Assembly (NCBI GenBank): GCA_030601865.1
Contig: JAUWAW010000002.1
Location: forward strand, 7,410-71,409
Reading direction: 5' to 3'
Length of the DNA stretch: 64,000 nt
Origin: Candidatus Nealsonbacteria bacterium
Lineage (GTDB): Bacteria; Patescibacteriota; Minisyncoccia; Minisyncoccales; JAUWAW01
Shown one piece after another: positions 5,960 to 59,237 of this stretch (position 1 is its first letter; each line of letters begins with the position of its first letter). The position numbers and the translations under genes are program-made. The notes under the pieces are model-generated. The model did not search any database and was not told the DNA's origin. It saw only the letters and a program-made list of their open reading frames with translations.

Positions 5960-7432
5960 TTAGTACTCCAAGAATTTCCATCTTTGGCGGCGGACGAGCC
6001 AATAAGTGAAACAGCCCAAAATTAAGTAAGAAGGTATGAGCCAGAGCCAGGAGATTTCTAAACTTACAGAAGCCCAAGGAATTTGAGAGAACCAATCAAC
6101 TATTTTGACAAGATAACTCAGCAAAAACCAAGCTGGCCAAGAAAGAACCCAGCCCAGGGTTTGCCAGAGCAGACCGCTTAAGCTAAAAACAAAGCCAGAA
6201 ACCATAACATAGGGCAAAATAGGCACAAGTAAAATATTGGTTATGGGCGCCACCAAAGAAAAATAGCCAAAGTTATAAATTAAAAGAGGAAGTGTGAAAA
6301 TTTGAGCTGCCAGAGTCATAACTAAAAGACTTTTCAATTTTCGGAGTTTAAACCTCCAAATATGGATTTTGGCTAGCCAACTTTGAAAAATGGGCATCAG
6401 GTAAATTATGCCGAGAGTAGCTAAAAAAGAAAGTTGGAAACCCACATCAGCTTTCAAAAGCAAAGGGTTTTGAACCAGCATAAAAGTGGCGGCTATGGTT
6501 ATGGCTCTTCCTCCTGTTCTCAGCCGGCCAATTTTTTGAGCCAAAAGCAAAAGCCCGCCCATAATACCGGCTCTAATAGCTGAAGCCGGCGCACCCACCA
6601 TAATAATAAAAAGAACAAGTAGAATGATGGCAAAATAAAAGGCCTGCCCTCTCCAGAGCCCAATTCTTGCACCCAGCCACATTAAAATCTGGCTGAGAAT
6701 AATAATGTGCATGCCAGAAACACAGGTAATATGCCTTACCCCAGCCACATTTAACTTATTCTTCCACTCCTCAGAAATTCTTCGCTTGTCTCCCAAAACT
6801 ATTGCTCCCAGAATTGAACTTTGAGGCGGGGATAATGAACTATAAATACTTTCTCTGAGTTTATTCTTAAAAGATAAGATTTTACTGTAAATAAAATTGC
6901 CTTGATTTTGAGCCAAAATTTCAATCTCTGGCCAATACATTAAAACGTAAATACCATCCTTGGCAAGATAATCTTTGTAGTTAAAATCTTCAAATTCTTG
7001 AGGAAGTTTTAATTTTCCAGTAATTTTTAATTTATCTCCATACTCGTATTCAGGATATTTTCCGGTGGTAACCAAGACCCTGCCCATTTCTTCAACCTTA
7101 ACGGCTAGTTTGATGCTCTTTAACCTGATGTCTGGTTCTTTTACTACCACGCCTAATAAAGTAATTTCTTTTTCTTGGTCGCTCCAGTGTCTTAACTCGC
7201 TCCTCTCAATCTTCAATTGGGCAGATTGGTGCCGCCAAATCCCAGCAACTAAGAAAATCAAACAGAACCCAATGACTGCCACTTTCTTATGCCTCCAAAA
7301 AACAGAAATAAGAAGGATGCCCAAAATTAAAACTCCCAACGTCAAACGTTGGGAGAAAAAAATTATTGAATTGAGAAAAACACCGGCGATAAAAGACAAA
7401 CAAAAATACAGAAAAATCTTAGATTTACTCAT
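5960..7432 (-). CDS. comEC: ComEC/Rec2 DNA internalisation channel (no C-terminal metallo-beta-lactamase domain)
   Basis: Polytopic membrane protein with the competence-domain motif LNVAGVRHITCVSGMHIIIL and an N-terminal OB-like segment. Confidence 0.8.
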   Translation of the reverse strand: MSKSKIFLYFCLSFIAGVFLNSIIFFSQRLTLGVLILGILLISVFWRHKKVAVIGFCLIFLVAGIWRHQSAQLKIERSELRHWSDQEKEITLLGVVVKEPDIRLKSIKLAVKVEEMGRVLVTTGKYPEYEYGDKLKITGKLKLPQEFEDFNYKDYLAKDGIYVLMYWPEIEILAQNQGNFIYSKILSFKNKLRESIYSSLSPPQSSILGAIVLGDKRRISEEWKNKLNVAGVRHITCVSGMHIIILSQILMWLGARIGLWRGQAFYFAIILLVLFIIMVGAPASAIRAGIMGGLLLLAQKIGRLRTGGRAITIAATFMLVQNPLLLKADVGFQLSFLATLGIIYLMPIFQSWLAKIHIWRFKLRKLKSLLVMTLAAQIFTLPLLIYNFGYFSLVAPITNILLVPILPYVMVSGFVFSLSGLLWQTLGWVLSWPAWFLLSYLVKIVDWFSQIPWASVSLEISWLWLIPSYLILGCFTYWLVRRQRWKFLEY

Positions 7433-7886
7433 GCAAAAACAAACCCTTCAAGCCGGTTGTTTCCTCTGTCTCTCTTCTTACTTTCAAATCGGTTTTCAAT
7501 AAAACAATCTCGCCGGTCACGCTCACCGTGCCTTTTATAAAATGCCCGCCAACAGCTCTTTTTTGTTTATTGCCTAAAACTGCGTGTAAATGAAATTCGT
7601 ATTGACCATCTTGCCCGCCCGCCTCGCTATGCGAAGCATTGCGGGCAGGTAAAGAAACATTGCCTGTTAACAATAGAAGTTCGTGGGGTTCGGTAAATTT
7701 TTCTGGCAGATAATTGCCTTTTTCTTTGAAAAAGCCCAACTCAAACTCGCCCAACTGGCCCAAGCCCGACAAAATAACAGCAGTTTCAATGTTATATTTT
7801 CGGCAAACTTTTTCCAAACTTTCAAAAATCTCCTCTCCGGGAAAAAGCCGCGCAAATATTAAATTATCCTTTTCTTTGCTTTGCAT
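7425..7886 (-). CDS. PPC (DUF296) domain DNA-binding protein
   Basis: ARLFPGEEIFESLEKVCRKYNIETAVILSGLGQL ... HLHAVLG is the PPC/DUF296 pattern. It carries an in-frame GC-rich hairpin insert (see 7611-7648). Confidence 0.7.
   Translation of the reverse strand: MQSKEKDNLIFARLFPGEEIFESLEKVCRKYNIETAVILSGLGQLGEFELGFFKEKGNYLPEKFTEPHELLLLTGNVSLPARNASHSEAGGQDGQYEFHLHAVLGNKQKRAVGGHFIKGTVSVTGEIVLLKTDLKVRRETEETTGLKGLFLHE
7611..7648. repeat. GC-rich hairpin element, copy E1, in frame in the DUF296 gene
   Basis: TGCCCGC...GCGGGCA outer stem with an ATGCGAAGCAT inner mini-hairpin. Translated as PARNASHSEAGG. Homologous to 48982-49019. Confidence 0.7.
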
Positions 7887-10503: not shown

Positions 10504-10699
10504 AAAAAATCCCGCTTCAAGCGAGATAGGATGACCCTACTCTTTACTCGAAGAGAATTAGGTTAAAATTTTTATGGCGGCATTCTGGCTTTTTACCCAG
10601 TTAAATAATTTCGCCTCTGGCGAAATTGCTGCGGAGCAGCATTTAACCGGGTGAACAGTTGCGGTACAGCTCAGGAATTACACCTGATTTCTCACCATT
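10504..10699 (-). promoter_or_regulatory. Cobalamin (B12) riboswitch with terminator expression platform
   Basis: The minus-strand RNA reads GAGAAAUCAGGUGUAAUUCCUGAGCUGUACCGCAACUGU (core GGUG..AAUUCC..GCNG..CCGCNACUGU). B12 box AAGCCAGAAUGCCGCC (plus coords 10576-10590). Terminal CUCGCUUGAAGCGGG + UUUUUU (10504-10525). Confidence 0.65.
10596..10651. repeat. Three-way-junction repeat, copy A2 (embedded in the riboswitch variable region)
   Basis: CCCAGTTAAAT | AATTTCGCCtctGGCGAAATT | GCTGCggaGCAGC | ATTTAACCGGG. Differs from copy A3 at only 3 positions. Confidence 0.75.
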
Positions 10700-16065: not shown

Positions 16066-16153
16066 GCAACCTACTCAGAACCAAATGTTTTTGTGTGGAA
16101 CTTATTGAATAAAGTTAGAACTTACTTTGAGCAAAATCCCGGCATTGATATTT

Positions 16154-16284
16154 AGCGGCGCTTCGCGCCGCTATCACCGCCGCCTTCGGCGGCAACACCA
16201 GGGACGTTGACGTTGACAGCGCCACGCGCCTACTGACGCCTTGACCGCGGCGTCGTTCCCAGCGGCGGCTTCGCCGCCGCTGGG
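16154..16284. repeat. Cluster of four GC-rich hairpins (REP/BIME-like array or structured RNA)
   Basis: AGCGGCGcttcgCGCCGCT (16154-72), GCCGCCttcGGCGGC (16179-93), GACGCCttgaccgcGGCGTC (16235-54), CCCAGCGGCGGCttcGCCGCCGCTGGG (16258-84). The GC-rich block stands out against AT-rich flanks. Confidence 0.55.
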
Positions 16285-16343
16285 CTGCAAAACAGGAAAA
16301 TTTTCTCTACATTTCTAAAAATTTTAGGCGGCGGGCTTTTAGT

Positions 16344-16375: not shown

Positions 16376-16380
16376 ATCTG

Positions 16381-16453
16381 TGGACCCAGAGGGATTCGAA
16401 CCCTCGACCTCGAACGTGCCACGTTCGCGCGCTACCAACTGCGCCATGGGCCC
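16381..16453 (-). tRNA. tRNA-Ala (anticodon GGC)
   Basis: Manual cloverleaf: acceptor GGGCCCA/TGGGTCC with G3:U70, D arm GCGC-AGTTGGTA-GCGC, anticodon arm CGAAC-GTGGCAC-GTTCG, T arm GAGGG-TTCGAAT-CCCTC. No encoded CCA. Confidence 0.85.
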
Positions 16454-16467
16454 CTCACCCAGAAAGC

Positions 16468-16728
16468 TTAAGCTGATGCTAAACTGTTTTTGATTCTTTT
16501 TTTCAACTGAGTATATGCCTGAGCAAATCTTTTTAGATTATCCTCTCTATATCTAGTATCAGCTTTAGCTCTGTATGCCTCGTAATAAATAAGGTCAAAA
16601 GGAGCTTTGTTTTTAGTTGACTTACTTTTTCCAGTATTATGTTCTTCAAGCCTTCTTATTAAATCATTTGTATAGCCAATATAAACACTGTTATCTCTTT
16701 TACTTCGTATCAAGTAGATATAATACAT
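16468..16728 (-). CDS. GIY-YIG nuclease domain protein (stand-alone, 86 aa)
   Basis: MYYIYLIRSKRDNSVYIGYTNDLIRRLEEHN is the GIY-YIG motif set. The ORF is exactly bracketed by inverted CCCAGAAAGCTT / AAGCTTTCTGGG. Confidence 0.8.
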   Translation of the reverse strand: MYYIYLIRSKRDNSVYIGYTNDLIRRLEEHNTGKSKSTKNKAPFDLIYYEAYRAKADTRYREDNLKRFAQAYTQLKKRIKNSLASA

Positions 16729-16760
16729 AAAGCTTTCTGGGTAAGGGGCTATGGGGCCCC

Positions 16761-17102
16761 TTACTTTTTAACAAACACTCTATACCAATCTTTGTCAGTA
16801 AAAATATCGTGGAAGATAATACCGAATATGCCGCCGATACAAAACTTGGGGAAAACATGAAGCAATCCTAATGCCCAGATTAAAATGAAAAACAAGGTTG
16901 CCATAATCCAGTGATGTAAATGGAGCTTCCGTTTTCCCAAATTCAAAAACACATATTTCATTCTGCTGTTCTCGGGAACTTTTTTGTGATAATAATGCGT
17001 TCCCAAAAATCCAGCTCCTAAACCTAAAACAAACAAAAAGGAGATGAAAGCAGAAACCAAAAGGGTTATTCCTGGTAAAATAATCTTCTTTGCTTTTGGC
17101 AT
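16761..17102 (-). CDS. Hypothetical membrane protein (3 TM)
   Basis: ORF with hydrophobic segments. No motif recognised. Confidence 0.5.
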   Translation of the reverse strand: MPKAKKIILPGITLLVSAFISFLFVLGLGAGFLGTHYYHKKVPENSRMKYVFLNLGKRKLHLHHWIMATLFFILIWALGLLHVFPKFCIGGIFGIIFHDIFTDKDWYRVFVKK

Positions 17103-20841: not shown

Positions 20842-22526
20842 AGAAAATTCTATTAGGTAATGAGGCGATTGTCAGGGGTGCTCTGGAAGCAGGGGTCAAT
20901 TTTGTTTCTACTTATCCTGGCACACCGGCTTCAGAGATTGGCAATACTTTTTACAAAATCGCCAAAGAAGCTGGGGTTTACCCCCACACCAAACGGGGGC
21001 AAGGCGCCAAAATTGACGAAGTCAGCCCCCGTTCTGGTGTGGGGGTCTATTTTGAATTTTCAACCAATGAAAAAGTGGCTTTGGAAGCTGGGATAGGAGC
21101 CAGTTTTTCCGGTCTTAAAACCTTAGTGGCCATGAAGCATTTTGGCCTTAATGTGGCCTCTGATAGTTTAATGCCTTTTTGTTATACGGGCAGCAAGGGA
21201 CCAACTGTAATTGTCGTAGCTGATGATCCTAACTGCTGGAGTTCAGCTCAATCAGAGCAAAACTCAAGGGCTTATTCTTATTTAGCCCACATTCCTACTT
21301 TAGAACCCTCTGACCCTCAGGAGTGCAAGGATTTCATTAAATTGGCCTTTGAAATTTCTGAAAAATTTAACCTGCCTATCTTAATCAGATTAACTACCCG
21401 CGTCAGCCACCAACGCGCCCCCGTTAAACTCGGCAAACTATCGGGAAGCCATCCCGATAAAGCAAGGTTTGTCAAAGAGCCACAAAGGTTTGTCACTATG
21501 CCGCCCCGAGTTCTGGAAATGAAAAAAGAACTTTTTAAAAAAATAGAAAAAATAAAAGAATTTTCCGAAAAAACCTTTATCAATAAAATAAGTTTGTTGA
21601 CATCGGATGTCAACAAACAAAAGACCGGCATCATCACTTCAGGAGTTTCTTATTTGTATGTAATGGAGGCATTGGAAGAATTAAAAATAGATTTGCCGGT
21701 TTTGAAACTGGGATTCTTTTATCCTCTGTCAGAAAAGAAAATTAAAGATTTTATTAAAAATCTTAAAAAGGTTCTGACAGTTGAAGAATTAGAACCATAT
21801 CTTGAAAAGGAAATAACAGCTTTAGCTAAATCTGTAAATCCTGGACTACAAATCTATGGCAAAGCTCTTTTGCCTGAGGTCGGAGAGTTGAAACCTGACC
21901 ATGTAGTTGCAGCTTTAGCTACTGTGCTTAAAACTCACGATCGTAGAGTTTTAGCACAGCGGGCTGATTTGCCCAAGTTTCCAAAACGTTTGCCAAATCT
22001 ATGTCCTGGTTGCCCTTACTGGCTTGTTTTTGGTGCAGCAAAGAAAGCAGTCGATTTTAAGAAAGTAATCTTTGGCGGTGACATTGGCTGCTATATGTTA
22101 GCTGGCTTGCCACCTCACAATATCCAGGATTATCTTTCTTGCATGGGTTCTTCTATTGGTATAGCTCATGGAATCAAGAAAGCTACCGCCGGGCAACAAA
22201 AACTTATTGCTTTTATTGGCGATTCCACTTTTTTCCATGCGGGCATCCCTGCTTTAATCAACACCGTCTTTAACAAGTCAAACCCCTTAATTATTGTGAT
22301 GGATAACCAAACCATGGCTATGACCGGCCACCAACCTCACCCCGGCGCGCCAGCCAAGCCAGATGGAATAAAAATTGAGAATATTGTCAAAGCCTGCGGC
22401 GTTAAAAATCTAAAAGTGATTGACCCCATCAAACAAAAAGAATTAATAAAAACAATTAAAGAATTTTTAAACAAAAAACAGGTCTCGGTAATTATTGCCC
22501 GAAGACCCTGTATATTTGTAAAATGA
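20838..22526 (+). CDS. iorA: Indolepyruvate:ferredoxin oxidoreductase alpha subunit (TPP-binding)
   Basis: N-terminal GNEAIVRGALEAGVNFVSTYPGTPASEI; CPGCPYW; TPP motif GDSTFFHAG. 4-nt overlap with iorB. Two in-frame palindromic inserts. Confidence 0.8.
   Translation: MKKILLGNEAIVRGALEAGVNFVSTYPGTPASEIGNTFYKIAKEAGVYPHTKRGQGAKIDEVSPRSGVGVYFEFSTNEKVALEAGIGASFSGLKTLVAMKHFGLNVASDSLMPFCYTGSKGPTVIVVADDPNCWSSAQSEQNSRAYSYLAHIPTLEPSDPQECKDFIKLAFEISEKFNLPILIRLTTRVSHQRAPVKLGKLSGSHPDKARFVKEPQRFVTMPPRVLEMKKELFKKIEKIKEFSEKTFINKISLLTSDVNKQKTGIITSGVSYLYVMEALEELKIDLPVLKLGFFYPLSEKKIKDFIKNLKKVLTVEELEPYLEKEITALAKSVNPGLQIYGKALLPEVGELKPDHVVAALATVLKTHDRRVLAQRADLPKFPKRLPNLCPGCPYWLVFGAAKKAVDFKKVIFGGDIGCYMLAGLPPHNIQDYLSCMGSSIGIAHGIKKATAGQQKLIAFIGDSTFFHAGIPALINTVFNKSNPLIIVMDNQTMAMTGHQPHPGAPAKPDGIKIENIVKACGVKNLKVIDPIKQKELIKTIKEFLNKKQVSVIIARRPCIFVK
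20981..21045. repeat. CCCCCACACC stem-loop element, copy D1, in frame in iorA
   Basis: 20-bp stem CCCCCACACCAAACGGGGGC / GCCCCCGTTCTGGTGTGGGGG (one bulge) with a 24-nt loop. Translated as PHTKRGQGAKIDEVSPRSGVG. Confidence 0.8.
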
Positions 22527-23224
22527 TGAATAAAACATTCAATATGGTAATTGTGGGCACCGGGGGGCAAGGAGTGATTACGGTTTTGCGGATTTTGGCT
22601 GAAGTAGCCCTTATTGAGGGCTATGATGTCAAAACTTCAGAACTCCACGGCCTCAGCCAAAGAGGGGGCTCGGTTGAGGTTCATATTAAATTTGGCAACA
22701 AAATACACTCTCCCCTGGTAGCTCAAGGCAAAGCCGACTTAATCTTGGGCTTAGAAATGCAGGAATGCTTGAAATCTTGCTATTTTGTTCACCCCCACAC
22801 CAAACGAGAACAAGATGCCAAGGGCACCAAAATTGACAAGGTCAGTTCTCGTTATGGTGTGGGGGCAAACTCAAAAACAAGTTTTTTAATCAATGATTAT
22901 CTTATCCCCATACTTTCCTGCCCGCCAGAGCCTTCGGCTCAAGCCGATGGCAGGCGGGTTCAAAAACCCTGGCCAAAAAACAAAATTCTAAAGACCTTGA
23001 AAAATTGGACAAAAGATATTACTCTAACTCCAGCAGCAAAAATCTGTGAAAAAGAATTGGGCACAAAGGTAGTTGTTGGAGTCTATCTATTAAGCTTGGC
23101 TGCTTTCAAAAAACTGGTACCAATTAAACCTGCCTCAATTCTTAAAGCAATGAAAAAAGTCTTGCCCTCAAAATATCTTGAATTAAACAAAAAAACCTTT
23201 AATTTAGCGAGAAAAAATGATTAA
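22523..23224 (+). CDS. iorB: Indolepyruvate oxidoreductase beta subunit
   Basis: VGTGGQGVITVLRILAEVALIEGYDVKTSELHGLSQRGGSV is the IorB/gamma-domain pattern. Two in-frame repeat inserts. Confidence 0.75.
   Translation: MMNKTFNMVIVGTGGQGVITVLRILAEVALIEGYDVKTSELHGLSQRGGSVEVHIKFGNKIHSPLVAQGKADLILGLEMQECLKSCYFVHPHTKREQDAKGTKIDKVSSRYGVGANSKTSFLINDYLIPILSCPPEPSAQADGRRVQKPWPKNKILKTLKNWTKDITLTPAAKICEKELGTKVVVGVYLLSLAAFKKLVPIKPASILKAMKKVLPSKYLELNKKTFNLARKND
22792..22865. repeat. CCCCCACACC stem-loop element, copy D2, in frame in iorB
   Basis: Stem CCCCCACACCAAACGAGAAC / GTTCTCGTTATGGTGTGGGGG with a 33-nt loop. Translated as PHTKREQDAKGTKIDKVSSRYGVG. Confidence 0.8.
22917..22958. repeat. GC-rich hairpin element, copy E3, in frame in iorB
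   Basis: CCTGCCCGCC ... GGCAGGCGGG with inner GAGCCttcGGCTC. Translated as CPPEPSAQADGRRV. Confidence 0.55.
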
Positions 23225-26106: not shown

Positions 26107-26120
26107 AAAAAAACCAGTTT

Positions 26121-26177
26121 ACCCAGTTAAATAATTTCGCCTTTGGCGAAATTGCTGTGAAGCAGCATTTAACCGGG
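26121..26177. repeat. Three-way-junction repeat, copy A3
   Basis: ACCCAGTTAAAT | AATTTCGCCtttGGCGAAATT | GCTGTgaaGCAGC | ATTTAACCGGGT. Confidence 0.75.
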
Positions 26178-26236
26178 TTTAACCTGTTTAACATAATCAT
26201 TTTGTATTCTAAACTTATTCTACTTTTTTGTCAAAA

Positions 26237-30368: not shown

Positions 30369-30468
30369 CTTCCACCTCTTCCTTATTGTATTGTTAAAAT
30401 GGAAGGACTACCTTCCACTATGTTTATTTTACCACCACAACATTAAGATGTAAATGAACACAGAACTC

Positions 30469-30507
30469 AATACGCCATAATTCTGCCATGGCTTTCTTAC
30501 GGCGTAT
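30469..30507. repeat. AATACGCC palindrome, copy C1
   Basis: AATACGCCATAATTCTGCCATGGCTTTCTTACGGCGTAT. It supplies the spurious upstream ATG (30488) of the next ORF. Confidence 0.75.
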
Positions 30508-31108: not shown

Positions 31109-31127
31109 AAAGCAAACTAGGACACAC

Positions 31128-31167
31128 AATACGCCATAAGAAAGCCATGGCTTTTTTATGGCGTATT
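31128..31167. repeat. AATACGCC palindrome, copy C2 (inverted relative to C1)
   Basis: AATACGCCATAAGAAAGCCATGGCTTTTTTATGGCGTATT. Confidence 0.75.
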
Positions 31168-36201: not shown

Positions 36202-37741
36202 TAATGTAGAATTACTTAAAACTTACCACAAATTGGTTAAAAAGAAAAGGTTGAAGAAAGACGGGGTAATAGAAAAGTTGCTTTGCACCAGGCCTATTCG
36301 TTCGCTTTCTGGCATTGTTAATGTCTCTGTTTTAACTAAGCCCTATCCCTGCCCGGGTCAATGTATTTTCTGCCCCAGCCAAAAAGGCATTCCCAAAAGT
36401 TATTTAAGGGGCGAACCTGCGGTTCAAAGGGCGATTTTAAATAAGTTTAATCCCTATTCGCAGGTCCAAACACGGCTAAAAAGTTTGCAAAAAACAGGCC
36501 ACCCAATAGACAAAATTGAATTAAGAATAATCGGTGGAACCTGGTCTTATTATCCCAAACAATATCAAACCCGGTTTGTTAAAGAATGCTTCCAAGCTTG
36601 CAACGAATTTTCTCCCCTAAAACAAATACGCCATAAGAAAGCCATGGCAGAATTACGGCGTATTAAGGAAAAGGAATTGGAAAAAGAATTGAAGAAAGAG
36701 CAAAAAGCAAACGAGAAAGCCAAGTGTCGGGTGGTTGGAATAACAATTGAAACTAGGCCAGATTATATAGATATTAAAGAAATAAAGCGGATGAGAGAAC
36801 TGGGCATAACCAGGGTGGAATTGGGGGTGCAAAGCATTTACAATGATGTTTTGAAATTAAACAAAAGGGGCCATGGCATAGAAGCGACAATTAAAGCAAC
36901 CAAACTTCTGAAAGAGTCCGGCTTTAAGGTTTCTTATCAAATGATGCCCAATTTGCCCGGCAGTACCTCCAAAAAAGACGTAAAAATGTTTGAAGAGATT
37001 TTTGAAAACCCTGATTTCCAACCCGACCTCTTGAAAATTTATCCCTTGGCCTTGCTCAAAGAAGCTCCTTTGTATAAATGGTATCAAAGAGGAAAGTTTA
37101 AACCGTATTCTGATAAAAAATTAATTAAGCTTTTAATAGAAATCAAAAAGAAAATCCCTTATTGGTGCAGAATCCAAAGGGTAATCCGGGATATTCCCTC
37201 AGCAGATATTGTTGAAGGAGGAGTTAAAATCTCAAATTTAAGAGAAGTTGTTCAAAAAGAAATGAAGAAGCAAGGATTGAAATGCAAATGCATCAGATGC
37301 CGGGAGGTGAAAAAAGATTACAACTCCCAAGAAAAATCTGTGCTTTTTCGCCAGGACTATAATGCCTCTGGCGGCAAGGAGGTATTTCTGACTTTTGAAG
37401 ATAAAAAAAGACAAAAACTCTATGCTCTGCTCCGCCTGCGCATCCCCTATCCAAAAGTGGCAAAGGACAGTCCTCTGCCAATTCTGAAGGATGCGGCGAT
37501 AATTAGGGAGGTTCATACTTATGGTCAACTCCTACCCATTCAACACAGAGATAGGACGAAAATAGGACAGTCGCCTCAACATAAGGGGTTAGGCAAAAAA
37601 CTGATTAAGCAGGGAGAAGAAATCGCCAAACAAGAGTTTGGCACAAAAAAAATAGCCGTCATCTCCGGCGTGGGAGTCAGGGCATATTACAGAAAACTCG
37701 GCTATCACCTGAAGGATACTTATATGATTAAAAAACTGTAA
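36086..37741 (+). CDS. elp3: Elp3-type radical SAM/GNAT tRNA U34 modification enzyme
   Basis: Radical-SAM cluster region PCPGQCIFCPS, VVGITIETRPD, RVELGVQS, and C-terminal GNAT QHKGLGKKLIKQGEEIA. Confidence 0.85.
   Translation: MSILEKIILELLKSRVKTRADLDSFKRKVAKEYKTPCPTNVELLKTYHKLVKKKRLKKDGVIEKLLCTRPIRSLSGIVNVSVLTKPYPCPGQCIFCPSQKGIPKSYLRGEPAVQRAILNKFNPYSQVQTRLKSLQKTGHPIDKIELRIIGGTWSYYPKQYQTRFVKECFQACNEFSPLKQIRHKKAMAELRRIKEKELEKELKKEQKANEKAKCRVVGITIETRPDYIDIKEIKRMRELGITRVELGVQSIYNDVLKLNKRGHGIEATIKATKLLKESGFKVSYQMMPNLPGSTSKKDVKMFEEIFENPDFQPDLLKIYPLALLKEAPLYKWYQRGKFKPYSDKKLIKLLIEIKKKIPYWCRIQRVIRDIPSADIVEGGVKISNLREVVQKEMKKQGLKCKCIRCREVKKDYNSQEKSVLFRQDYNASGGKEVFLTFEDKKRQKLYALLRLRIPYPKVAKDSPLPILKDAAIIREVHTYGQLLPIQHRDRTKIGQSPQHKGLGKKLIKQGEEIAKQEFGTKKIAVISGVGVRAYYRKLGYHLKDTYMIKKL
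36625..36664. repeat. AATACGCC palindrome, copy C3, in frame in elp3
   Basis: AATACGCCATAAGAAAGCCATGGCAGAATTACGGCGTATT, translated as IRHKKAMAELRRI. Confidence 0.75.
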
Positions 37742-39093: not shown

Positions 39094-39398
39094 TGCTTTG
39101 ACGAAGATACCTTACCAGAATTTTAACCTTTTGTCAAACTCTGTTTCAATCTGCTCCGATCGGAGTAATTTGAAACGCTTTACCAAAAAATAAAAATGTT
39201 TAAAACTCACGATCGTGAGTTATTTAAACAAAGAAAAATATAATAGCCGTCCCGCAAGGAACGGCGGATAAGTTCACTGAGAGAAAATGCCTCCAGTAAA
39301 ACCGATTTTCCCTCTGTTTGCTGCTTCATTACAATTGCCCCCTTTCTGTTCTATGAGGTTTCTCTTTCTTCACAAATTGGTAAAGTTCTAATCTCCTG

Positions 39399-41707: not shown

Positions 41708-42883
41708 ATGTCAACAAAGACCCCAAAAATTGAACAGGTGCTGACCAGAGGTGTGGAAAAGATTTTGCCAAGCAAAGAGGGGTTAGCCAACTTGATGAAA
41801 AAGAAGAAAATTCGTCTTTATCTGGGCATTGACCCAACCTCGCCGGAGCTCCATCTTGGTCATAGCATCCCTCTAAGAAAACTTAAGCAGTTTCAGGATT
41901 TGGGCCATGAAGTAATTCTTTTATTTGGCACCTTTACTGCCCAAATTGGCGACCCTTCTGGCAAAGATGAAACAAGAAAACCTCTTAGCTCAGCCCAAAT
42001 CAAAAAGAATATGGCTGATTACAAAAAACAGGCCGCAAAGATTCTTGATTTTTCCAAAGTAAAAATTAAACACAATGCTGACTGGCTTGCCAAATTCAGC
42101 CATAAAAAAGTTCTGGAAGTTGCCTCTCATATTACCGTCAGCCGTTTACTGGAAAGGGATATGTTCCAAAGACGGCTTAAACAAGGCAAAGAGGTCTGGC
42201 CTCATGAACTCCTATACCCCTTGATGCAGGGCTATGATTCAGTGGCAATGGATGTTGATTTAGAAGTGGGCGCCACTGACCAACTGTTTAATATGATAAT
42301 TGGCAGAAAGCTTCAGAAGATTTACAACAAAAAAGAGAAATTTGTCCTAACTACACCCATGTTGGTCGGACTTGACGGCCGAAAGATGAGCAAGACCTAT
42401 GGCAATACTGTTAATTTGACTGACCCAGCCAACGAGATGTATGGCAAGATTATGTCGCTTCGTGATGAACTAATAATGCAGTATTTTAAGTTATGTACTG
42501 ATATATCCCTGGCTAAAATCAAAAAACTGGAACACCCGCGAGACCTGAAAGCAAGACTGGCTAGCGAAATAGTTGCTATGTATCACAGCAAAACTGCTGC
42601 GGCAAAAGCAGAAAAAGAATTTAATAGAGTTTTTAAGGAGAGAAAATTACCGCAAGTCCTGCCCAAAATTTCAATCAAAAAAAAGGAGATGAATATTCTT
42701 GAATTGTTGACTAAAACCAAATTGGCCTCTTCTAAATCTGAGGCCAAGCGATTGGTTTTGCAAAAAGGGGTTAAGATTGATGGCCAGAAGCAAAAAGATT
42801 GGCAAAAAGCTGTAAAAATCAAAAAGGGTATGGTAATTCAGAAAGGAAAAAGAAAGTTTGTAAAGATTAGTTGCTCATTCTAA
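41708..42883 (+). CDS. tyrS: Tyrosyl-tRNA synthetase
   Basis: HIGH-type ELHLGHSIPL, KMSKT, C-terminal S4 domain. The ATG at 41708 is preferred. Confidence 0.9.
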   Translation: MSTKTPKIEQVLTRGVEKILPSKEGLANLMKKKKIRLYLGIDPTSPELHLGHSIPLRKLKQFQDLGHEVILLFGTFTAQIGDPSGKDETRKPLSSAQIKKNMADYKKQAAKILDFSKVKIKHNADWLAKFSHKKVLEVASHITVSRLLERDMFQRRLKQGKEVWPHELLYPLMQGYDSVAMDVDLEVGATDQLFNMIIGRKLQKIYNKKEKFVLTTPMLVGLDGRKMSKTYGNTVNLTDPANEMYGKIMSLRDELIMQYFKLCTDISLAKIKKLEHPRDLKARLASEIVAMYHSKTAAAKAEKEFNRVFKERKLPQVLPKISIKKKEMNILELLTKTKLASSKSEAKRLVLQKGVKIDGQKQKDWQKAVKIKKGMVIQKGKRKFVKISCSF

Positions 42884-42906
42884 AACCCCGGCTTCGCCGG
42901 GGTTTT
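42882..42906 (+). terminator. Rho-independent terminator of tyrS
   Basis: AAAACCCCGGCttcGCCGGGGTTTT (GCTTCGC/GCGAAGC apex). Confidence 0.75.
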
Positions 42907-47120: not shown

Positions 47121-48665
47121 TTATTTTAGCGCTTCGTAAAACTTTGCCCAATCAAAATTCCAGGGGTCAGTTTTGCGGTCGGGCGCTATTTGATTGTGGC
47201 CCAAAATATAATTTATTTTATATTTTGTCTTTAAAAACTTAACTAAACTGCCAAGCGAATTATACTGCTCCTTGGTAGGAGTATCAGATTTTGAGTTAAC
47301 TAATTCAATACCAATAGAAAAATTATTGACATTGGTTCTACCGTCAGGCATTTTGCTAACACCGGCGTGATAGGCAATATCTTTATCGAGCGCCAAACGA
47401 TAAATGGTCCCATCACGCGCAATAAGATAGTGTGGTAAGACACCATAGAGTTTATATTCTTGAATAATGCCATCAATATTATAGGGATTTTCACCAAGGG
47501 CGTCGTAAGAGGAGTGAATAATGATGGTGTCAATTAAACGGGGAGACAATGGTGTATGGTGCCCCCAAGCAAGAATTCTATTGACAACATTAAGAGGGGT
47601 TTCTGAATCTTTTATTTCCAGGGTTTCGGTTGGTTTCTCTTCAGTTTTTTCTGGCTGGAAGTATTTGTTAATTTTAATATCTTGGGGGATTACTTGTTCT
47701 ATTTTGCCATTTTTGATGATTACTTTCAGTAAAATGCTTTTCAGGGTTTCTTCAGAAAAGTCCTGGTCAAAAACAAAGTCGCCCAAACTGTAGGCAATCC
47801 AGCCCTCTTTGTATTTTTCTATTTTTTGGACGACATGAGGATGGTGTCCTACTACTAAATCAGCGCCGGCCTCAATGCTGGCTTGAGCAAAAGAAATTTG
47901 AAAAGGCGTGGGTTTTAACGAATACTCCGTCCCAGCATGTAAAGAAACAACCAAAATATCTACTGCTTGCTTGAAGTTTTCAATATCTGCTTGAATGGCT
48001 TCTAAGCTCTTTTCATCAATCCAGGCAAGACCAGGACTTTCTCGCTGTGCCATCCATGTTTTTGGGCCTAAATTAGTGTAAGCCAAAAATCCAACCCTCA
48101 CGCCTTCCGTCTCTTTTATCTTTACTGAGAAGGCCTCTTCTCTGTTAAATCCAGCGCCAATATAATCTATGCCATTTCCTTTTAAAATCATCATTGTCTC
48201 TTTTAAGGCTGTGCTTTGGTAATCAAGCATGTGATTGTTGGCTAAAGACAAAATATCAAAACCAGCAAAAGTAAGTCCTTCTATGGCCTCTGGTCTGAAT
48301 CTGAAAGAACAAATACTGCCCACCTTTATACCCTTATCTGAAATTGGTCCTTCTAAATTACCGAATAAAATATCTGCTTTTTTAAGTTCTTCAGCTATTT
48401 TCAAAAAGGGAAATCTAAAATCCCCTTCCCCGTATTTTTCTATCATATATTCCACTCCTCGGTTTAACATAATATCTCCTACCAGAAAAAGGGTAATCTC
48501 TGGGGCCTCTGGAATGTCTTTGAAGGCAAACTCAAGAGAAAAATCAATAGCAGCTTGTTGGTTCTCTATTAAAAACTCTTTAGCTGGCAAAATAAAACTT
48601 AAAACAAAAAACCCCCCAGCTAAAACCAAAATGACAGTTAGAGTGGCTAATGTAAACCTTTGCAT
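47121..48665 (-). CDS. CapA/PGA-type metallophosphatase domain fused to N-acetylmuramoyl-L-alanine amidase (Amidase_2/PGRP) domain, membrane anchored
   Basis: CapA motifs FLVGDIMLNRGV, ANNHMLDY, GHHPHVVQ. Amidase_2 motifs IIIHSS, HYLIARDGTIY, AYHAG, SIGIEL, GHNQIAPDRKTDP. Confidence 0.75.
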   Translation of the reverse strand: MQRFTLATLTVILVLAGGFFVLSFILPAKEFLIENQQAAIDFSLEFAFKDIPEAPEITLFLVGDIMLNRGVEYMIEKYGEGDFRFPFLKIAEELKKADILFGNLEGPISDKGIKVGSICSFRFRPEAIEGLTFAGFDILSLANNHMLDYQSTALKETMMILKGNGIDYIGAGFNREEAFSVKIKETEGVRVGFLAYTNLGPKTWMAQRESPGLAWIDEKSLEAIQADIENFKQAVDILVVSLHAGTEYSLKPTPFQISFAQASIEAGADLVVGHHPHVVQKIEKYKEGWIAYSLGDFVFDQDFSEETLKSILLKVIIKNGKIEQVIPQDIKINKYFQPEKTEEKPTETLEIKDSETPLNVVNRILAWGHHTPLSPRLIDTIIIHSSYDALGENPYNIDGIIQEYKLYGVLPHYLIARDGTIYRLALDKDIAYHAGVSKMPDGRTNVNNFSIGIELVNSKSDTPTKEQYNSLGSLVKFLKTKYKINYILGHNQIAPDRKTDPWNFDWAKFYEALK

Positions 48666-49105
48666 AAAAATTTATTTGCTTTTTTAAGGATTTCTTTGGT
48701 GTTTTTGAAAGTTAATTGCTCTAGTGCCTGCTCATAAGCCAGCCATTTGTAACCAATATGTTCATAGGAAATTTTGACCTCTTTTGTTTTTGTTTCAGCT
48801 AGAAGATAGGTGACGATTTTAAAGATGTTTTTGTTCTCCTGTTTGTAAAAATACTTAATCCATTCTTTAAAACCCTCAATAAATTTAATATCTTCTATGC
48901 CTGTTTCTTCTTTGGCTTCCCTTAAGGCAGTTTGCTCCAAACTCTCGCCTTGCTCAATATGTCCCTTAGGAAATCCCCAATGCCCGCCCACATCGCTACG
49001 CGAAGCGTTGCGGGCGGGTCCCAACCCATAATGTAAAAGAAGGTAATGGAGCTCATTACCTTCTCTTCTAAATATAACAACGCCGGCTGATTTTTCTAAA
49101 GGCAT
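48647..49105 (-). CDS. Nudix hydrolase (Ap4A-hydrolase-like)
   Basis: WGFPKGHIEQGESLEQTALREAKEETGI Nudix box, interrupted upstream by the in-frame GC-rich hairpin E2. Confidence 0.75.
   Translation of the reverse strand: MPLEKSAGVVIFRREGNELHYLLLHYGLGPARNASRSDVGGHWGFPKGHIEQGESLEQTALREAKEETGIEDIKFIEGFKEWIKYFYKQENKNIFKIVTYLLAETKTKEVKISYEHIGYKWLAYEQALEQLTFKNTKEILKKANKFLCKGLH
48982..49019. repeat. GC-rich hairpin element, copy E2, in frame in the Nudix gene
   Basis: CCCGCCC...GGGCGGG outer stem with inner ACGCGAAGCGT. Translated as PARNASRSDVGG. Confidence 0.7.
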
Positions 49106-51876: not shown

Positions 51877-51909
51877 TTAGAATTTAACGTCATATTCTCA
51901 GGTTCATTT

Positions 51910-51945
51910 TGTGTCAAAATCCTGCGATCGCAGGATTTTGACACA
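51910..51945. repeat. Perfect 36-nt palindrome centred on GCGATCGC, copy H7
   Basis: TGTGTCAAAATCCTGCGATCGCAGGATTTTGACACA. Identical to 59186-59221, including the flanks TTT...GTTTT. Confidence 0.85.
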
Positions 51946-51960
51946 GTTTTTTATTGTTTA

Positions 51961-59170: not shown

Positions 59171-59185
59171 TATCTCTGTCAATTT

Positions 59186-59221
59186 TGTGTCAAAATCCTG
59201 CGATCGCAGGATTTTGACACA
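59186..59221. repeat. Perfect 36-nt palindrome centred on GCGATCGC, copy H8
   Basis: Identical to 51910-51945. Confidence 0.85.
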
Positions 59222-59237
59222 GTTTTGAAAGTAGAAA

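Follow-up and report, generated by a model that had tools for sequence, protein, structure and literature searches.

Why should the same GC-rich hairpin stand, in the same reading frame, inside two unrelated protein genes of one bacterium? The question was raised by a 64,000-nt stretch of a Candidatus Nealsonbacteria genome (assembly GCA_030601865.1, contig JAUWAW010000002.1, positions 7,410 to 71,409), here called the window, in which a sequence-only reading had marked two such hairpins, one in a Nudix hydrolase gene and one in a DUF296 gene. Both are present, and each could be defined as a sharply bounded 36-nt unit (CCYGCCCGCAAYGCTTCGCRTAGCGAKGCGGGCGGG) lying on the minus strand, which is the coding strand of its open reading frame (ORF). 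The common frame was likewise borne out, the unit being read as PARNASRSDVGG in one protein and as PARNASHSEAGG in the other. We conclude with considerable confidence that the unit is a mobile palindromic insert that is translated, and we lean toward the more specific interpretation that it is a miniature, non-autonomous palindromic mobile element of 36 bp, translated and probably moved by a small GIY-YIG nuclease. The copies in the window and the genes that carry them are as follows:

48983..49018, minus strand: 36-nt hairpin element, copy 1, coding strand CCCGCCCGCAACGCTTCGCGTAGCGATGTGGGCGGG, peptide PARNASRSDVGG, in the Nudix gene
48647..49105, minus strand: Nudix hydrolase gene, host of copy 1; ORF, Pfam PF00293, E 4.9e-21
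7614..7649, minus strand: 36-nt hairpin element, copy 2, coding strand CCTGCCCGCAATGCTTCGCATAGCGAGGCGGGCGGG, peptide PARNASHSEAGG, in the PCC/DUF296 gene
7425..7886, minus strand: PCC (DUF296) domain gene, host of copy 2; ORF, Pfam PF03479, E 9.9e-27
22917..22958, plus strand: 42-nt relative in iorB, with the same arms (CCTGCCCGC...GCAGGCGGG), a different self-complementary core and ~14 extra residues (SCPPEPSAQADGRR)
22523..23224, plus strand: iorB-like gene (POR family), host of the 42-nt relative and of a second, unrelated palindromic insert; ORF, Pfam PF01558, alignment

A search of the window with a 39-nt consensus pattern matched at 7612-7650 and 48981-49019 only, with no match in 100 shuffles. 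The two 36-nt segments form local islands of 72-75% G+C in a window of ~39%. We also used a home-made covariance model, built on a structure that includes the inner hairpin drawn in the sequence-only reading, whose E-values are rough. It found exactly three members in the window, namely the PCC copy (63 bits), the Nudix copy (60 bits) and the iorB hairpin (22 bits, E ~0.004). The last had been noticed as a looser relative and is indeed a distant one, sharing the 9-nt arms around a core that is different yet self-complementary. All three copies are intragenic and in the sense orientation.

Comparison with homologous proteins (numbered P) and DNA loci (numbered L) confirmed the suggestion that a repeated hairpin had been inserted into unrelated genes and was not ancestral protein sequence. 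The Nudix insert was missing from 118 of the 120 listed homologues, its only carriers among them being the window protein and P0040; where the nearest relatives read LLLHYELG/HWDFPKG (the slash marks the insertion point), the window protein reads LLLHYGLG-PARNASRSDVGG-HWGFPKG. The PCC insert peptide was found in none of the other 118 of 120 listed homologues, the carriers being the window protein and P0122, and homologues of 140-142 amino acids read LTGNVSL/QG... against LTGNVSL-PARNASHSEAGG-QD... in the window. The ~14 residues contributed by the iorB hairpin were absent from 15 of 15 aligned iorB homologues. At the DNA level, empty sites for the Nudix gene (TTA GGG/CAT TGG, L125) and for the PCC gene (TCT TTG/CAG GGC, L126) differ from the filled sites by exactly 36 nt, with zero duplicated bases. 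An exact gain of the hairpin without duplication was also evident at more than 10 loci where a split tRNA fragment could be compared with an adjacent intact tRNA, and no target-site duplication was found in any of the at least 13 empty/filled comparisons. Nor did we find a target motif beside the insertions, where merely T is depleted just upstream and A just downstream.

The distribution of the insert among relatives points the same way. Once the inserts are stripped, no two of the 120 proteins are further apart than the window Nudix protein and P0040 (63% identity), and insert-free relatives stand closer to the two carriers, at 78% and 69% identity; the second PCC carrier, P0122, has insert-free relatives at 87-89% identity. 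Either insertion struck the same codon boundary two times or precise loss of the insert occurred many times. Copies shared by distant homologues are conserved at least as well as the host genes. Copies also occur in or beside other copies: in P0122 a reverse-oriented second copy sits exactly between positions 18 and 19 of the first, beside the hairpin tip, and nested or tandem copies are present in L016, L042, L045, L139, L145 and L183. We also observed other GC-rich inserts in one PCC homologue (P0125) and two iorB homologues (P0242 and P0278), namely GPPSPACGGLRRA, GPAQAGGWRAGWS and a 35-residue insert, which occupy the same loops as the inserts of the window; these loops are either repeatedly hit or repeatedly tolerant.

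To determine how far the element extends beyond this genome, we scanned one genome per species (596 Gb) for the pattern GCCCGCAAYGC-N7-AGCGA-N3-GGGCGG, which has 24 fixed bases and a chance expectation that we estimate at ~0.01 in 596 Gb. At least 118 loci with unrelated flanks matched, and many of the 8-kb loci held two or three copies. The records among the matches listed carry the labels of many Patescibacteria classes, Verrucomicrobiota, uncultured Gammaproteobacteria, Bdellovibrionales, Margulisiibacteriota and others. All of the matches listed are metagenome-assembled genomes (MAGs), so some taxon labels are possibly wrong; for Patescibacteria and Verrucomicrobiota at least, the status of carrier is supported by contigs of 0.2 to 5 Mb. 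In one Verrucomicrobiae MAG (L053, L085 and L101) the 36-mer lies inside a longer repeat with constant flanks (...attgctgattgcccc, 36-mer, gtgat...), indicating that it can travel within a larger unit too. A phage origin was rejected given only 3 matches in 2.9 million viral contigs, as was a CRISPR repeat, since the copies are solitary or irregularly spaced. The core 14-mers were found on neither strand in the literature searched, where no description of the element turned up, and the papers found there on GIY-YIG proteins with palindromes, hairpins, tRNA, tmRNA or Patescibacteria and on in-frame palindromic insertions in the Candidate Phyla Radiation (CPR) held nothing about it.

That every occurrence lies in a MAG might be taken to mean that the repeat is an assembly or sequencing artefact, just as the peptide might have been thought ancestral. 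We regard both ideas as barely credible, since they are already contradicted by the homologue comparisons above, including the remoteness of the two Nudix carriers from each other; by an independent assembly of a public read set, which reproduced the Nudix copy; by the presence of the repeat in assemblies of many projects, on contigs up to 5 Mb; by the existence of decayed, nested and compensated variants; and by a bias among reading frames, described below, that is not expected of an artefact.

Aligned in 120 unique contexts, the copies carry ~2 bits of information across the 36 positions and ~0 one base outside. The unit consists of 9-nt GC arms (CCYGCCCGC and GCGGGCGGG) around a small inner hairpin, with a 3' AGCGA tail that makes the palindrome asymmetric; the commonest form, CCCGCCCGCAACGCTTCGCGTAGCGATGCGGGCGGG, accounts for 35 copies, and variation is concentrated at four positions. 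The compensatory inner pair noted between the two window copies (ACGC..GCGT versus ATGC..GCAT) proved to be real and general: positions 12/20 are C-G in 95 of 127 copies, T-A in 23, T.G in 3, C.A in 1 and other combinations in 5, a covariation that supports the inner hairpin drawn in the sequence-only reading. Pair 3/34 is a T.G wobble on the sense strand in 53 of the 127. Folding is strong for either strand, whether as DNA or as RNA (z -1.8 to -5.1).

Diverged relatives from other loci are laid out alike: the first 9-nt arm and an A lead into an inner stem of 4-6 bp with a 3-4-nt loop, and the returning inner strand is followed by a tail beginning AGC and then by the second 9-nt arm. Their inner stems show paired changes (ACGC/GCGT, ATGC/GCAT, TTGC/GCAA, ATCGC/GCGAT, GAGCC/GGCTC and GCGGC/GCCGC), and their tails are complementary to the loop and the start of the returning strand (TCGC/GCGA, ACGC/GCGT, TTGC/GCAA, AAAGC/GCTTT, GAAGC/GCTTC and TCGGC/GCCGA). 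Since both complementarities are present, two small hairpins that overlap are in competition, both mutually and against the global palindrome. The covariation fits both the inner hairpin (11-14/18-21) and the overlapping alternative (16-19/23-26), and the global palindrome, in which 12-15 pair with 22-25, is the fold favored by ViennaRNA. The loops vary among relatives (TTC, TAC, TTT, TGAA, TAAA) while the 9-nt arms are fixed, so it is the arms, not the apex, that define the family. Rfam 15 returned only sub-threshold chance matches for the element (mir-532 at 19.7 bits against a threshold of 75, CRISPR-DR20 at 12 against 42) and, over the whole window, four tRNAs and nothing else.

We were also curious whether the inserts are read by ribosomes. 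Each strict copy was removed in silico, and the frame giving a long ORF across the junction was scored. Among the matches listed, 50 of 100 strict copies were intragenic, and the rest were intergenic or in the flanks of RNA genes. The unit amounts to 12 codons, open in five of six frames, and the 50 intragenic copies were distributed as follows:

Sense, PARNAS frame: 29/50 (58%)
Sense, second open frame: 4/50
Sense, sole frame with a stop (TAG): 0/50
Antisense, three frames: 8, 6 and 3 (17/50)

Roughly 8 of 50 copies would be expected in the stop frame without a frame effect, and the probability of finding none is (5/6)^50, ~1e-4. The empty stop frame indicates that the insert is read by ribosomes and purged where translation stops, which leads us to reject RNA-level removal and translational bypass. 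Programmed bypass of the kind described for T4 gene 60 and the mitochondrial 'byps' elements was rejected on the same count, and also because the window inserts, at 36 and 42 nt, are multiples of 3. The peptide of the commonest frame, PARNAS(R/H)S(D/E)AGG, is hydrophilic with Pro and Gly at its ends, and the excess of this frame may reflect tolerance of such a bracketed peptide or an orientation bias of insertion. In the AlphaFold models the mean pLDDT (predicted local distance difference test) score was 90 for the Nudix protein and 85.5 for the PCC protein, falling below 50 at the inserts (residues 30-38 and 83-92, respectively), and both inserts are predicted to be disordered surface loops between beta strands. 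Twelve codons, five open frames and a hydrophilic peptide together explain how copies in surface loops, as in the Nudix, PCC and iorB proteins, are translated and tolerated.

A hairpin that is translated could instead have been kept for a local use, as an mRNA structure tuning translation or decay or as a peptide motif, its spread being secondary. The sense orientation of all three window copies and of 33 of the 50 intragenic copies would suit such a use, as would the tolerated T.G wobble on the sense strand and the conservation of copies common to distant homologues. Yet the hosts are unrelated, half of the copies are intergenic or flank RNA genes, nearly all orthologues lack the insert, the insert is predicted to be disordered, and the 17 antisense copies encode quite different peptides. 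We therefore consider a local use very improbable.

Which enzyme might move a mobile, translated insert of this size? When ORFs around the matches listed (at least 118 loci) were clustered, the widest family was a small GIY-YIG protein of ~80-90 amino acids, present at 11 loci; no transposase or other enzyme family recurred near the copies at these loci. Ten of 14 GIY-YIG genes lay within 130 nt of a 36-mer. To our knowledge, the UPF0213 family has solved structures and no known role; Slx1-Slx4 is a structure-selective nuclease. The GIY-YIG neighbors match PF01541 (E 5e-16 to 4e-15), and profiles of the family match the UPF0213 structures PDB 1zg2 (E 2e-10) and 1ywl (E 2e-8). The UPF0213 family (YhbQ, YazA) has been grouped with Slx1 in a review (PMC7017083). 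The window has a gene of this kind next to a tRNA gene:

16468..16728, minus strand: small GIY-YIG (UPF0213/Slx1-type) nuclease gene, candidate trans-acting partner; ORF, PF01541, E 5e-16
16380..16453, minus strand: tRNA-Ala(GGC), directly downstream of the GIY-YIG ORF; ARAGORN

By analogy with the cassettes described below, this nuclease may be linked to the two inserts of the window. Inverted repeats of ~20 nt surround its ORF (16454-16480 and 16729-16765, CCCCTTACCCAGAAAGCTT ... AAGCTTTCTGGGTGAGGGG); the downstream repeat runs into the 5' end of the tRNA-Ala, an inverted copy of which lies upstream of the ORF, as if a long hairpin had the ORF for its loop. At other GIY-YIG cassettes the bracketing repeats are short and of the types ccccgttagaga and ccccgtggaata.

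Three types of cassette combine the nuclease ORF with the hairpin. In the first, an intact tRNA is followed by the ORF and by a duplicated tRNA 3' fragment that is split precisely by the hairpin (L004, L007, L090 and L111); in the second, a duplicated tRNA 5' fragment split by the hairpin precedes the ORF and the intact tRNA (L047 and L092); and in the third the order is smpB, ORF, hairpin and transfer-messenger RNA (tmRNA), with the hairpin in either orientation (L026, L080, L107 and L117). The final GGG of the hairpin coincides with the predicted 5' end of the tmRNA, so that a location inside the mature tmRNA was rejected. Insertion into a tRNA variable arm, considered for five Verrucomicrobia copies, was also rejected; ARAGORN and Rfam show an intact tRNA-Val upstream, and the copy lies in a duplicated 3' fragment after the GIY-YIG ORF. 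Within the split tRNA fragments the hairpin stands at tRNA positions 3/4, 5/6, 10/11, 11/12, 12/13, 13/14 or 18/19, always precisely.

The association was also seen in 80 GIY-YIG loci sampled independently from metagenomes; a 6-sequence alignment served as query, and the loci were selected for their similarity to one subgroup. An arm-type hairpin lay no more than 150 nt from the ORF in 31 of the 80, and hairpins of the superfamily numbered 35 in 23.3 kb of flank and 9 in 129 kb elsewhere, an enrichment of ~21-fold.

Some loci show other arrangements of hairpin, nuclease and RNA gene. Hairpins with the same arms and different cores lie ~90-130 nt inside the tmRNA genes of some Patescibacteria (L127 1871-1906 and L131 1538-1571), in the same position behind '...tctcgt', as inserts that are tolerated or as a helix that the RNA has adopted. 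At L144 (1430-1930) a tRNA-like gene is apparently split twice, in the D-loop by a hairpin and in the anticodon loop by a GIY-YIG ORF, and at L149 (1440-2050) there are tandem GIY-YIG ORFs, between which a tRNA bears another small palindrome.

What we observe is thus a discrete unit that is inserted precisely, without target-site duplication and in both orientations, that is translated, that lies in and beside other copies of itself, and that is strongly associated, physically, with Slx1-type GIY-YIG genes. The nuclease may be the mobilizing enzyme, a proposal to which we give slightly less than even odds. Action as single-stranded DNA, a possibility already raised in the sequence-only reading, is plausible in view of the precise insertion without duplication, the polar tail, the nesting at an unpaired tip and the adjoining gene of the Slx1 family. 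In the mechanism that we propose, the 36-nt unit would fold on transiently single-stranded DNA, and a small Slx1/UPF0213-type GIY-YIG nuclease would cut at the base of the arms. Enzymes with the GIY-YIG fold leave 5'-phosphate and 3'-hydroxyl ends. The freed hairpin oligonucleotide, or a copy of it, would bring its own ends together and be ligated into a nick elsewhere, and replication would then leave exactly 36 bp added, with nothing duplicated and no particular sequence required. Through its asymmetry the tail would mark for the enzyme which strand to use. By homing to tRNA and tmRNA genes, which are universally conserved, cassettes would take the recognition hairpin from phylum to phylum, and within this model such transport would account for the near-invariance of the hairpin. 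A bolder and rather doubtful extension is that the hairpin and the UPF0213 nuclease form an unrecognized minimal mobile system, in which the nuclease excises the folded 36-nt hairpin and the host ligase seals the nicks, a kind of 'peel and paste' that would not need a transposase with its covalent intermediate. If true, this would account for precise insertion at any site without duplication, for a 36-mer that is nearly invariant across phyla, for the split tRNA and tmRNA decoys, and for the role of the widespread UPF0213/YhbQ/YazA family.

Alternatively, the hairpin may be mobile and translated and the GIY-YIG nuclease not its mobilizer, the cassettes carrying or attracting it. The hairpin might then be a 5' or 3' stabilizer or terminator of the nuclease mRNA, or might break up the duplicated tRNA fragment and so guard against deletion of the cassette, and solo copies would have spread by a host process such as template switching or repair-patch capture. 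Consistent with this, the cassette hairpin always falls within transcribed DNA flanking the ORF, at 45-100 nt on the upstream side or 12-130 nt on the downstream side, and of the two direct repeats through which the cassette could be precisely lost it splits one. However, a 21-fold enrichment at seven tRNA-fragment positions would need either a very high supply of insertions or some coupling to the nuclease, the copies at the loci listed have no other enzyme family as a recurrent neighbor, and conservation of 36 positions across phyla points to a specific, horizontally mobile protein rather than to generic host repair. We judge this alternative somewhat unlikely.

Several points nevertheless weigh against a nuclease-driven mobile element. 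In the independent sample 49 of the 80 GIY-YIG loci have no such hairpin, and in the window's own cassette no arm-type hairpin was found by sequence or covariance-model search; both facts also suit a nuclease that is not the mobilizer. The cassette could be doing no more than use the hairpin, as an RNA end structure for instance, or both could prefer the same sites. The PARNAS-frame and sense biases could stem from peptide selection or an RNA-level role, not from the mechanism, and the taxonomic breadth may be partly binning error. The transposition chemistry is one that we infer throughout, and present-day mobility is a presumption.

The element shares much with repetitive extragenic palindromic sequences (REP/REPIN), which are GC-rich, imperfect and asymmetric palindromes, hence polar, that lack target-site duplications; REPs measure 20-40 nt and are thought to act as folded single strands. 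A REP-like sequence mobilized by a REP-associated tyrosine transposase (RAYT) or an IS200/IS605-type Y1 (HUH) transposase encoded elsewhere in the genomes would share with our element its shortness, its GC-rich imperfect palindromy, its asymmetric unpaired tail and its lack of duplication, as in single-strand 'peel and paste'. But REPs are extragenic by definition, species-specific, marked by a conserved GTAG/CTAC foot and accompanied by a RAYT gene (Y1 HUH), whereas half of the copies of our element (50 of 100 listed) lie in long ORFs, its foot is CCYG...CGGG, its flanks carry no information and no adjoining target motif, and it crosses phyla. Its recurrent neighbor is a GIY-YIG nuclease, not an HUH enzyme; the Y1/RAYT family was not among the recurrent neighbors, and phmmer with approximate IS200/IS608 TnpA queries, a weak negative, found no Y1-like ORF in the window or in the 118 loci listed. 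A REP-type origin is therefore improbable.

Other known systems resemble the element in part. The Rickettsia palindromic elements (RPEs), reportedly described by Ogata and colleagues in 2000, are palindromic repeats in frame in unrelated genes. The 36-nt element is likewise an in-frame palindromic repeat in unrelated protein genes that is absent from orthologues, and both also adjoin or enter RNA genes including tmRNA, add translated surface segments and have no transposase of their own. RPEs, which we set apart here by description, are ~100-150 bp long, are confined to Rickettsiales and are not GC-rich islands with 9-nt arms, whereas our element measures 36 bp, has sharp borders, is nearly invariant across phyla and has a recurrent nuclease neighbor. 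A strict miniature inverted-repeat transposable element has terminal inverted repeats and a target duplication made by a DDE enzyme; the 36-nt element has inverted arms but no target duplication. In yeast mitochondria, mobile GC clusters of 30-60 bp, such as the optional cluster in var1, are palindromic and lie in an AT-rich genome. Like our element they are GC-rich palindromes of which some stand in frame in a coding region, and their spread is by break-associated conversion, with endonuclease ORFs present alongside; they differ in being organellar, in having short target duplications and preferred target motifs, and in not being common to distant lineages. Integron attC sites are comparable imperfect palindromes; they act in folded, single-stranded form, and unpaired bases choose the strand. 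They differ in that they serve a tyrosine integrase at cassette boundaries, are not dispersed in genes and have no sequence in common with the 36-nt element.

The cassettes themselves recall free-standing GIY-YIG homing genes and the insertions in CPR rRNA genes, with small GIY-YIG ORFs in or beside conserved RNA genes. The CPR rRNA insertions that hold GIY-YIG ORFs are not introns, and most insertions, including short ones without an ORF, stand at the top or base of stem-loops; a hairpin partner or a split duplicated target was not described (Tsurumaki et al. 2024, PMC11270868). Compared with I-TevI, the cassette proteins have little beyond the catalytic domain of 80-90 amino acids (UPF0213) and no separate DNA-binding domain.

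The 36-nt element therefore belongs to a known kind, the in-frame palindromic gene inserts, and is unusual in its size, its spread and its candidate partner enzyme. At 12 codons, and nearly unchanged in distant phyla, it would be the smallest in-frame 'coding' mobile element known to us. Because it adds loops to proteins encoded by the reduced genomes of Patescibacteria, it affects annotation, orthology calls and structure prediction, and the conserved 36-mer would be an easy marker of horizontal exchange between episymbiotic Patescibacteria and other bacteria. Its repeated association with the Slx1-type GIY-YIG cassettes found at tRNA and tmRNA genes offers a testable function for UPF0213 and suggests a route of transposition requiring just a structure-selective nuclease and a ligase.

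The sequence-only reading had further proposed that the heptamer GCGAAGC recurs at hairpin tips and ties the inserts to the tyrS terminator, the hairpin after rpsT and a cluster near 16.2 kb. Counted within the window, GCGAAGC/GCTTCGC occurs 12 times against 5.2 +/- 2.6 expected, a number reached in 2 of 100 shuffles, so that the enrichment is weak. Two of the 12 are the inserts themselves, and the recurrence at tips stood to the extent that six cap stems of at least 4 bp. The proposed tie did not hold up: the enrichment is marginal, the loop varies within the family, and the heptamer-tipped hairpins at 16160, 16268, 31515 and 42891 were not members in the covariance-model search. TTC/GAA is the commonest triloop on stems of at least 6 bp (6 of 47), which fits a general preference for a stable GC-clamped triloop, as in the terminator-like hairpin at 42882-42906. 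A 145-nt G+C-rich block (16152-16296), which adjoins the GIY-YIG/tRNA-Ala locus at ~85 nt downstream of the tRNA-Ala, has three perfect hairpins, each closed by C-GAA-G on stems of 9, 6 and 12 bp; by the model it is not in the 36-mer family, and Rfam gave no match in the 16.1-16.4 kb searched.

Beyond the 36-nt element, there are several independent palindromic repeat families in this genome. One of them, unrelated to the hairpin, lies in frame in both subunits of an enzyme, at 20980-21054 in iorA and at 22799-22873 in iorB (PHTKRGQGAKIDEVSPRSGVGV / HPHTKREQDAKGTKIDKVSSRYGVG), with arms CCCCCACACCAAACG.....CGTT.TGGTGTGGGGG and three compensatory changes between the two copies (GGGGG/CCCCC versus GAGAA/TTCTC). 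The iorB copy was absent from 15 of 15 aligned homologues, and its pattern was unmatched in 206 fetched loci. Identical 45-nt perfect palindromes (ATTTTGTGTCAAAATCCTGCGATCGCAGGATTTTGACACAGTTTT, centre GCGATCGC) occur at 51906-51950 and 59182-59226, with a diverged copy at 39138-39182. A 61-nt double hairpin is present at 10592-10652 and 26118-26178 in copies that are 95% identical, and a 43-nt palindrome around GCCATGGC is found at 30465-30507, 31124-31166 and 36621-36663.

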